Below, piece by piece: positions 33,101-36,100 of a stretch of DNA of 64,000 nt. Every line of letters starts with the position of its first letter. Positions within the stretch are counted from its first letter, which is position 1. The DNA comes from Schmidtea polychroa (taxonomy: Eukaryota), in NCBI GenBank assembly GCA_044892525.1, contig CM097885.1:21144001-21208000 (forward strand), in the 5' to 3' direction. Made by a program: the position numbers and the translations under genes. Under the pieces are notes generated by a model. It made no database searches. It saw nothing but the letters and a program-made list of their open reading frames with translations, and was not told where the DNA came from.

Positions 33101-36100
33101 ATTTAAAATATGATGTTTTATTTATACTAATACTGTATGATTTTGATTGGTTGATAGACTATAAATGTAAAAGAAAGGTTTTGATTTGATACACCATGAA
33201 AACTATATTCATATTGCTAATTATTATAACGAGTGTGTGCTCACACAATACAACAATAACAGTGGAGTCTTTTAATAAATCAATATGTGTTTGTCCGAAT
33301 ACAGCCAAGTTGATGGATATTTTATATATTCTCGACAAACCAAAATGGTCAAAGCATCCAGGAAAAAGAATATCTCAAAGATTGGAGAATTTAGAAAACA
33401 GTTATGAACTATCATTTGAATATATACAAAATATAAAAATTAAATTGATTGATCATATTGAGGTTTTCAATAACTCTATTGTTGAAAATAAAAAGAATAT
33501 GAAAATTATTGATAAGAAGCATGATTATTTATTAAAAAAGATTGAATTATTATTAACAGAAATTCAGACAATCAAAGGATCAATAGAATATCTGAAAATC
33601 AATTCAACGTTACCAATTTCTAACAATATTGCTGCGAATAGTAGTACATCAATATTTAGTTTACCTTTGTTAATTTTACATTATTTTATTGTTTAAATAA
33701 ATGTATGTTTTGTTGATTTGTTGATTTGTGAGTTGTTGAGCGTGACCAGTACCCTTGTGAGCATTACCCATAGGGGGACAAAATATTTTGTCGGATAGAC
33801 TCGGAGGATATAGACTCGGTGTATATAGATTAATACTACTACTACTACTAATAATAATAATAATAATAACAGGATATATAGCTCATTCGAAAGGTCTTGG
33901 ATTGAGCTTTAAAATGAGCTATCGATTATTAATTTTCGTTGACGGGAACTTTGAAAAAAAAATTAAAAATAAAATAATAATATTTTTTAAAAATAATAAT
34001 ATGACCTTGATGACTCATCGCAATGACTCACATGACCTTGGGAATGACCTTGGATGAGTCATGCGACCTTGAAAATGACCTTGATGAGTCATCGGATGAC
34101 TCAGATGACCTTGAAAATGACCTTGAAAATTTTTGATGAGTCATGGTATGAGTCATATGACCTCGAGAATGACCTTGAAATTTTTTGATGAGTCATAGCA
34201 TGAGTCATATGACCTTGAGAATGACCTTGAATGAGTCATGTGACCTTGAAATGACCTTGGATGAGCCATACGACCTTGAGAATGACCTTGATTGAGTCAC
34301 GGTCTTTGTTTAAATGACCTTGAAAATTTTTATGACTCATCGGATGAGTCAAATGACCTTGATAACTCATAGGATGACTCAGGTGACCTTGAAAATGTCC
34401 TTGATGAGTCATGGTCTTTGTTTAAATGACCTTGAGAAATTAGATGAGTCATAGGATGAGTCATGGTATTTGTTTCAATGTCCTGATGAGTCATATGCCT
34501 TTGTTTAAATTTGACCTTGAAAAAAAATGTACTTTTAGGCTTAGAATTTTTTAAAAATTTTACGACCGGGGGGAGGGGGGTACTGTGCTAGCGGTGCCCT
34601 GTGCCAGCGGTGCCCAATCCATCTACTTAAATCCAATGTCACGGAGAGAAGCAATATATAATTAAAAACTCACAATTCAACTAACATCAGACAACTGCCA
34701 GACAACCTGCACACCTGATCGTATAGAGCCTCTGACTTTCCAATTATTAAAAATATTAATAATTTAATAATTAAATTGCAAATACATAATTAAATTAATA
34801 AAATTAAAATACATTGTTTTAATATTCATATAATATTCACACACGTACACATGAGACACGAAAATTTCTCTCCGCCCCAGGTAAGCATACAACATTGCTG
34901 ATTCAACGCTATTGCATACTTTACCTGCTACACTGGAAATCACATCACTTGAAAATTAGCTTGGTCGCAGAAAAAATATCTGCAAACTTGTTAACATGAC
35001 TTATGAAAAATCATATTCGCCTCTGGAGGCACCGTCTAAACCCATCTATAATCTTCGCGTCTCATGCATAGTACTGATGAGAGCCAAAATCTCGAAACTA
35101 GTCTACTATTGGGATTTACACTTGGTATCACAAAGCTTGTAATGTTTATATTTTAATGTTAGATATCCGTAAAAAAATATTTTACACCATTACAAGTTAA
35201 AAATGCTAAAGGTTTACGAATGCACTTGTAAACAGTTTCTATGTATAGACGGTGTCTCCAGAGGTGAATATGATTTTTCAAATGCCATTTTTACAAGTTT
35301 ACAGATATTTTTTCTGTGATTTAGCTAATTTGCAAGTGATATGATTTCCAGTGTAGCAGGTAAAGTATATAATAGAGTTGAATCAGCAATATTGTATACT
35401 TACCTGCGTGAAGAGAAATCTTCGAGTCTCCTGTATAGTACTGATGAGAGCCAAAAGCTCGAAACTAGTCTACTATTAGGATTTGAACTGGGTATCACAA
35501 AGCTTGCAATGTTTATATTATTTTATATTATTTAATGTTAGACATTCGTAAAAAAATATTTTACACCATTACAAGTTAAAAATGCTTAAGGTTTACGGAT
35601 TCACTTGTAAACAGTTTCTGTGTATGACTTAGATTCTCTTTAACGCTCGGCTCAATAATTTCAGTTTTAAGAACCGCTATTTGGAGGTGACCGTTCAAGT
35701 TGGAGAGATTGGTACCAACTCAAATTTAGTGATCAAATGAATAATTATCTGTGATCTAAACTTGATGTAAACAGAGGCGAAAACAAAATAGGGAAGAATT
35801 AAATTAAATTTTTAAATTAAATAGATTAATAATAAATTTTAAAAACTCTTTCTTTTAATCGGCGAAATGTAATAGTTTTTTTTATTCTGCACGCATTTCA
35901 TCATGTTAGCTTAATATGTTTAATAACAAAGAAATTATGAACCTAAGTTTGTAAACTTAGAAGTTAAAAAGAAATTTAAAGCATCATAGATATACTTGAC
36001 TCGGGAAACTGTATTAGGAAACATTTCATATCCCAAGATATTTGCTATCCAAAGAGATGCTGTTGATTGTGGAATGTTAATTGTACGTATAAGTTGTCAC

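Follow-up and report, generated by a model that had tools for sequence, protein, structure and literature searches.

A two-unit, partly inverted insertion with canonical type I hammerhead motifs in an acyl-CoA ligase intron: probable member of an abundant non-LTR retrozyme family

The metazoan non-LTR retrozymes share with the element described here a tandem non-coding unit, low GC content, one type I hammerhead per unit, a self-paired monomer and a high copy number. Their units measure 350-390 bp in Mytilus and 330 or 350 bp in axolotl (PMC7229834; 10.64898/2026.07.22.740005), and our element agrees with PMC7229834 in size, low GC content, tandem type I motif and occurrence in flatworms and annelids. 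The axolotl hammerhead HHR_Amex1 has a weak palindromic helix III like that of our element; it is described as cleaving 6% in 1 h as a monomer, and more as a dimer. Newt satellite 2 and schistosome Sm-alpha are likewise tandem repeats with a dimer-dependent type I hammerhead. However, Sm-alpha is tRNA-related, whereas searches of our element found no tRNA and no Pol III A box, and a single B-box match, confined to the minus strand. Compared with the metazoan non-LTR retrozymes, the element is set apart by an inverted first half-unit, a match to the 5' end of U1 snRNA and a candidate intron.

The pLTRs of Penelope-like elements (PLEs) also carry a hammerhead within a repeat, and combine a partial tandem with a head-to-head inverted 5' copy, as our element does (PMC4209133; PMC3846280). 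This head-to-head form has been described for Penelope insertions (PMC8557442; PMC3846280). Published definitions separate the two kinds of motif: in the canonical metazoan hammerhead, helix I has 6 bp and helix II 4 bp, and a helix III of 1-2 bp carries a palindromic loop, whereas the PLE minimal hammerhead (min-HHR) lacks helix III, has a helix II of 7-8 bp and a helix I of 4-5 bp, and carries an extra base between positions 9 and 10.1 (PMC4209133). In contrast to the PLE pLTRs, our element has a canonical hammerhead and is without an RT/GIY-YIG ORF, a tail or a target-site duplication (TSD). Last, the amniote intronic type I hammerheads (Rfam HH9, RF02275) have the same helix lengths and loop 2 and are the best Rfam match of the element, but the latter is part of a mobile repeat and not a single conserved locus.

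We analysed a stretch of 64,000 nt, hereafter the window, from the AT-rich genome of an animal, perhaps a planarian flatworm, with introns of 41-46 nt. A gene for a 4-coumarate-CoA-ligase/luciferase-like acyl-CoA ligase was modelled on the plus strand (107-52188), with 12 coding exons, GT-AG at all 11 introns and an open 530-aa frame; the numbering of exons and introns counts coding exons only. The protein is of the AMP-binding type and is identical to P0001 at 358 of 419 residues; a homologue search with exon 3 found none. As originally predicted, the element lies in sense within intron 6 of this gene (6617..37850, +; 31,234 bp). Contigs from four of the 17 runs listed were aligned to 34640-38100 at 80% likeness. 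X1 and X5 are presumed DNA runs from two different studies, X1 possibly being the source sample, X7 is probably an RNA run, and X9 comes from a second organism (organism B). In X7, a 1,767-nt contig matches the next exon (37849-38035) and nothing else of this region, which points to spliced mRNA. Further along the window, a paralogous ligase exon at 61394-61615 suggests a tandem gene copy.

The repeat setting was predicted to be direct plus inverted, and this was borne out. With V and B as the first and second halves of the unit, the locus reads inverted V, an 8-bp filler, B, V, B. The inverted first half-unit (34851..35041, -) comprises V and the first ~17 nt of B, which leaves about 17 nt duplicated at the inversion point; it stops just before helix I, contains no hammerhead core and stands head-to-head with the direct part. 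Read on the minus strand, the filler at the inversion junction (35042..35049) imperfectly repeats the first ~10 nt of the unit. Repeat comparison then places the second half of unit 1, with hammerhead 1, at 35050..35246 (+) and, together with contigs, a complete 379-bp unit 2 at 35247..35625 (+). The direct repeats (35050-35246 and 35417-35625) are 87% identical with a 12-bp indel, and the inverted arms (34846-35041 and 35243-35437) are 86% identical. The unit is 367-379 bp long; it is non-coding and holds one type I hammerhead, with a complete core in both of the two units. The longest stop-free stretch in the element is 68 codons, which leaves it no coding capacity, and the surrounding 2-kb bin has 33.6% GC. 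The start and end of the insertion share one unit register, ~155 nt downstream of the predicted cut site. TRF, run on the window, did not report the unit as a tandem repeat. One X1 contig spans the right junction of the insertion with zero differences. From its sequence, we read the locus as a two-unit insertion with its first ~190 nt flipped.

Hammerhead 1 (35068..35109, +) and hammerhead 2 (35435..35476, +) have the same layout. In both, the core reads CTGATGA, stem II GAGC-CAAAA-GCTC, GAA, the palindromic ACTAGT and then C17, and stem I is the 6-bp ATAGTA/TACTAT. Stem II has 4 bp in hammerhead 2 and 3 bp in hammerhead 1, where the core is intact and a T stands at 35090. The predicted cut sites follow GTC, after C35103 and C35470, at a spacing of 367 nt. 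The predicted cut-to-cut monomer (35104..35470, +) has two ends that pair, re-forming helix I. A strict structural search of both strands of the window, requiring core, NUH site and the first two helices, found these two hammerheads and no further match, and the same search on 200 local shuffles gave one match in total (mean 0.005). The two type I cores with their palindrome, the positions of GTC and the 367-bp spacing therefore stand as the original prediction had them. The Rfam/Infernal search that it named as a check was divided: nothing in the window was matched at the gathering score (52 for HH9), whereas a relaxed threshold put HH9 first, scoring 27.3 bits (E 2e-4) for one motif and 19.1 bits (E 0.097) for the other. 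As regards a possible tertiary contact between loops 1 and 2, HH9 aligns in sequence with both loop 2 (CAAAA) and a 3-nt bulge.

The label 'minimal' does not fit published usage (PMC4209133). Hammerhead 2 has every feature of the canonical metazoan type I motif (CUGANGA/GAAA core, NUH and helix lengths), and hammerhead 1 departs from it by its 3-bp helix II. Helix III is palindromic and 1-2 bp long, and the extra base after A9 is absent. Set against the features of the PLE pLTR min-HHR, neither motif agrees with them, and the S. mediterranea PLE min-HHR (PMC4209133 supplement) is a different motif. By published definitions applied to the sequence, both motifs are canonical hammerheads of the newt/schistosome type, not Penelope 'minimal' motifs. 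This architecture points to a non-LTR retrozyme rather than to a Penelope pLTR min-HHR.

The unit is highly repeated. Over six bins of 34872-35567, summed contig depth is 0.72-1.30 million in X1, compared with 164-243 on the unique flank and exon, and 239-394 thousand in X5, compared with 43-57; summed contig depth is not copy number, and we read these values as 'thousands' only. Contig depth falls at both unit ends. Some contigs join 35406 to 35050 (14 in X1, eight in X5, one in X7) and others join 35625 to 35254 (five in X1, one in X5). Thus, the unit forms a closed loop in either register. This copy lacks the common family base at, for example, 35425, where C makes up 68% of X1 depth, and 35434, where it makes up 90%, and with 35090 included both hammerhead copies carry private damage relative to the common family variants; no core variants occurred among the 40 variants listed of 201. 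A TATA-like site at 35366 was rejected, as it rests on two changes specific to this copy.

Family contigs are also present in X7, although contigs give no ends, strand or level of RNA. The X7 depth over the unit (2.7-6.0 thousand) showed no consistent enrichment compared with other repeats, being higher relative to X1 but not to X5. In X9, where records are very short and no contig lies on most of the exon, pieces of the family are present, which is only a hint that the family is conserved across species. In the same run, the bin 35104-35219, just downstream of cut site 1, has ~10 times the depth of most other unit bins. Scans for the hammerhead pattern gave no match in viral sequences, none in prokaryote genomes, and in metagenomes only L001. 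We dismissed this match as chance, because it lies in protein-coding sequence of an unrelated GC-rich contig and has neither helix I nor a BLAST match to the window. A possible likeness of the unit's first bases to a planarian spliced leader was dropped.

The predicted monomer is unusually self-paired. It folds at -93.5 kcal/mol (z -4.09), and none of 100 shuffles was as stable. In separate shuffles, the sense monomer reached z -4.5 as a linear and -4.8 as a circular molecule, compared with -2.2 and -2.1 for the antisense. The median z of 20 other intron windows was -0.03, although one of the 20 reached -3.85, which counts against the retrozyme reading. The duplicated segments differ by 37 substitutions, 20 of them in confident sense-strand pairs. 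Pairing is kept in 14 of these 20, including one two-sided change (35301/35317), and is broken in six; the antisense strand keeps pairing in four of 13. A P of 0.0002 for this result ignores ascertainment, and we replaced it by P of about 0.03, from simulations of neutral decay with ascertainment modelled (7 of 234 reached 14). These predicted pairings speak modestly for variants that went through selection at the RNA level. The ACUAGU palindromes of the two hammerheads could join in a duplex of 6 bp (-5.4 to -6.2 kcal/mol).

We consider it likely that the locus is a dispersed two-unit member of a family of non-coding non-LTR retrozymes, present in high copy number in an AT-rich invertebrate, and a passenger where it stands. 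No sequence relative was found in the collections that we searched, searches of openly licensed papers and preprints listed no paper on the family, and our best reading is that the retrozyme family is new. Retrozymes are recognized by units of 150-450 bp in tandem, each holding a type I hammerhead, an arrangement found here, as are non-coding sequence with GC under 50%, a multi-copy family (thousands-fold contig depth in both of the two presumed DNA runs) and a highly self-paired monomer (z -4.1 to -4.8). A TSD over 4 bp, listed as optional in PMC7229834, is absent: the two insertion ends showed no match, and the best 7-mer lay away from the junctions. Other features of the locus also count against a retrozyme. 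The direct tandem amounts to only about 1.55 units, and both ends of the insertion are offset from the cut site, lying ~155 nt downstream of it. A Penelope protein was shown to begin reverse transcription at internal sites that are fixed and lie downstream of its hammerhead (PMC11167929), and the register of the insertion would fit such start sites.

The original prediction had connected the motifs with both retrozymes and Penelope-like elements. This connection holds through the retrozyme-sized tandem unit, the multi-copy family, the self-paired monomer and the head-to-head inversion, but it is weaker for the Penelope pLTR type, as the motif is canonical. The head-to-head inverted, 5'-truncated copy at the 5' end that is typical of Penelope is present at this locus, although its inverted copy ends 190 nt from the 3' register of the element, compared with 30-40 in Penelope-like elements. 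The inverted part ends where the direct part begins, which we take to recall L1 twin priming.

Our model of how the family spreads follows the retrozyme cycle of PMC7229834 and treats cleavage, circularization and mobilization by PLEs by analogy with the literature. We propose that tandem units are transcribed and that neighbouring hammerheads pair via the ACUAGU palindrome and then cut. The self-paired monomer may be ligated to a circle by a host ligase, and a Penelope-like reverse transcriptase/endonuclease acting in trans may copy multimers into new sites. The present copy would be a two-unit insertion in which the first ~190 nt were inverted during integration. If so, one more invertebrate has an abundant retrozyme family, and the proposal that retrozymes are moved by Penelope-like enzymes gains support from the head-to-head inversion of this insertion.

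What the element may do within intron 6 is a separate matter. The original prediction held that transcription of the host gene could release an RNA of ~367 nt. In the predicted fold of the pre-mRNA, the left inverted arm forms 175 pairs with sequence from 35240 onward. The nested double hammerhead lies 147 kcal/mol above the minimum energy with the arm and 20 kcal/mol above it without the arm, energies that exclude the pseudoknotted dimer and core contacts. The stems of hammerhead 1, which is predicted to misfold, have a pairing probability of 0 whether the arm is present or absent, whereas those of hammerhead 2 are predicted mostly to form in context, stem I with probabilities of 0.79-0.90 for five of its six pairs and stem II as well. 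Release of the 367-nt RNA from this intron is thus doubtful, but a single slow cut at 35470 is possible. The modelled folds indicate that the inverted arm probably blocks double cutting here, and inactivity at this locus is what folding predicts; they suggest that a double hammerhead lying in sense within an intron of the host can lose its activity through an inversion. In Xenopus, only one of nine genomic dimers cleaved in vitro and about 43% of retrozyme copies are in introns (10.64898/2026.07.22.740005), so an intronic, probably silent dimer is ordinary.

Other explanations of the locus have to be weighed against the retrozyme. It could consist of orphan pLTRs of an autonomous Penelope-like element, left by a 5'-truncated insertion that kept a pair of direct pLTRs and a single inverted one. 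This is the typical Penelope layout, and the Adineta element Pen2a has a 15-bp overlap at its inversion (PMC3846280). In addition, the unit contains a candidate 79-nt GT-AG intron (35360..35438, +) that ends within the 5' strand of helix I, and D. virilis Penelope has a 75-bp intron that also ends at helix I (PMC8557442; PMC4209133). Retrozyme and pLTR readings overlap, since among 57 Xenopus retrozyme families 24 have termini that match Repbase TEs, nearly all of them PLEs (10.64898/2026.07.22.740005). We nevertheless regard orphan pLTRs as unlikely, if well worth considering. The hammerhead is canonical and not the PLE min-HHR, contigs join unit end to start in both registers while depth drops at both ends, and neither a 30-40-bp tail nor a TSD is present. 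Nor does any ORF lie between or beside the direct repeats: none exceeds 104 codons within about 1.1 kb upstream and 2.1 kb downstream, and a Pfam scan of 20 of the 70 ORFs of the window, a kind of scan that decayed fragments can escape, found none that is PLE-like.

It is very improbable that the ribozyme is incidental to a foldback or MITE-like DNA element with 190-bp inverted repeats, or to a satellite made by unequal crossing-over. The arms at 34846-35041 and 35243-35437 do resemble long terminal inverted repeats, but they are not flanked by a TSD, the repeated family reaches 190 bp past the right arm and loops unit to unit, and the tandem joints suggest that most genomic copies are without the inverted arm. 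The predicted fold and the keeping of pairs are, moreover, biased to the hammerhead strand. We give hardly any credence to a device adopted by the host, which would cut intron 6 co-transcriptionally and regulate the ligase gene in the manner of the amniote RECK/CTCL intronic hammerheads. Conserved intronic hammerheads are a precedent (PMC6155905), the gene is intact, the orientation is sense, and hammerhead 2 is predicted to fold correctly in context. However, copies like this one are very numerous, and the intron around it is crowded with other mobile DNA; both hammerheads carry the private damage noted above (35425, 35434 and 35090), in context the energy cost of the double hammerhead is 147 kcal/mol, and intronic copies are common among the Xenopus retrozymes.

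Taking the element as a non-LTR retrozyme, we find one part of it that could matter more, and it is the only such part. The sequence ATACTTACCTG at 35396..35406 (+) is identical to the first 11 nt of U1 snRNA (consensus from PMC3033335 and PMC2213330). It is also a perfect donor on the minus strand and contains a branch-site-like CTTAC. The chance of this 11-mer is 2.5e-4 per unit; as we noticed it after the fact, the overall chance is perhaps 1%. The motif recurs in the family, in the loose-end consensus of 30 contigs in X5 and eight in X7, and variants with an extra G extend the match to 13 nt in 58 contigs of X1 that make up only 8% of depth there. Rfam gave no U1 match in the window at E<=10, and the likeness to U1 is 11 nt here. 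The 11-mer is paired with a donor-like site (35357-35368) in a long predicted hairpin (35356..35408, +) of -25.7 kcal/mol; its counterpart in the other arm has -23.8. Together with the AG at 35437-35438, this site defines the candidate intron. The predicted spliced form re-forms helix I with one mismatch, but the splice consensus by itself accounts for four of those pairs; the spliced joint from 35359 to 35439 was not among the 15 contig joints listed of 125.

A possible parallel is newt satellite 2, for which an snRNA-type promoter was reported (cited in PMC2220036). The accessible text of the retrozyme papers PMC7229834 and 10.64898/2026.07.22.740005 makes no mention of a U1 5'-end match or a candidate intron, and the term 'U1 snRNA' was absent from the openly licensed papers searched, among the matches listed. 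That the unit makes use of a built-in U1 5' end is a speculative and rather unlikely idea, which takes two forms. A captured external U1 promoter and start site could be carried along through tandem repetition and hammerhead cutting. Alternatively, a U1 mimic could pair in cis with the donor and branch region of the unit, so that the 79-nt intron would stay unspliced in the transposed RNA; splicing of this intron might then switch the ribozyme between two forms of helix I. A third reading, which needs no function, remains: the match is a mirrored donor from an old inversion. If true, the U1 mimic would be a testable mechanism by which Penelope-type RNAs keep introns through retrotransposition. 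Intron retention in PLEs and the promoters of animal retrozymes are open questions in the retrozyme and PLE papers cited, and the U1 match bears on both.

The inversion also put a strong cryptic donor, CAG/GTAAGCAT (34878..34888, +), on the host sense strand, where it is predicted to be buried in the arm-arm duplex. Its pairing with the U1-like 11-mer amounts to -11.0 kcal/mol, compared with -1.6 to -8.3 for the 11 host donors of the gene. The donor in the inverted arm is thus more complementary to U1 than all 11 real donors.

The window holds several other repeats and mobile sequences. Directly to the right of the element, a 167-bp segment (35629-35794) has an inverted 92% repeat at 3497-3663, in intron 3 of the ligase gene, and is of low copy in the contigs. 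Polinton/Maverick-like pieces lie at 10011-13685 (-), 24998-33700 and 62277-63977, partly in intron 6, with a protein-primed DNA polymerase B, an adenain-type protease, an integrase and an A32-like ATPase among their proteins; their ATGACCTTG-rich terminal repeat arrays are at 7728-8743, 22757-23331, 33990-34627 and 62161-62928. A pair of 1.5-kb AT-rich inverted repeats (14833-16581 and 20328-22139; 87%) surrounds a RING-finger frame at 19422-19976. Intron 7 contains a Gypsy-type LTR retrotransposon (39631-45744, +) whose pol frames are split and whose right LTR is duplicated in part. Just before exon 8, an intronless 222-codon frame (46201-46869, +) combines cofilin/ADF and proteasome-subunit parts (Pfam E 2e-11 and 1e-9) and looks like a chimeric retro-fragment.
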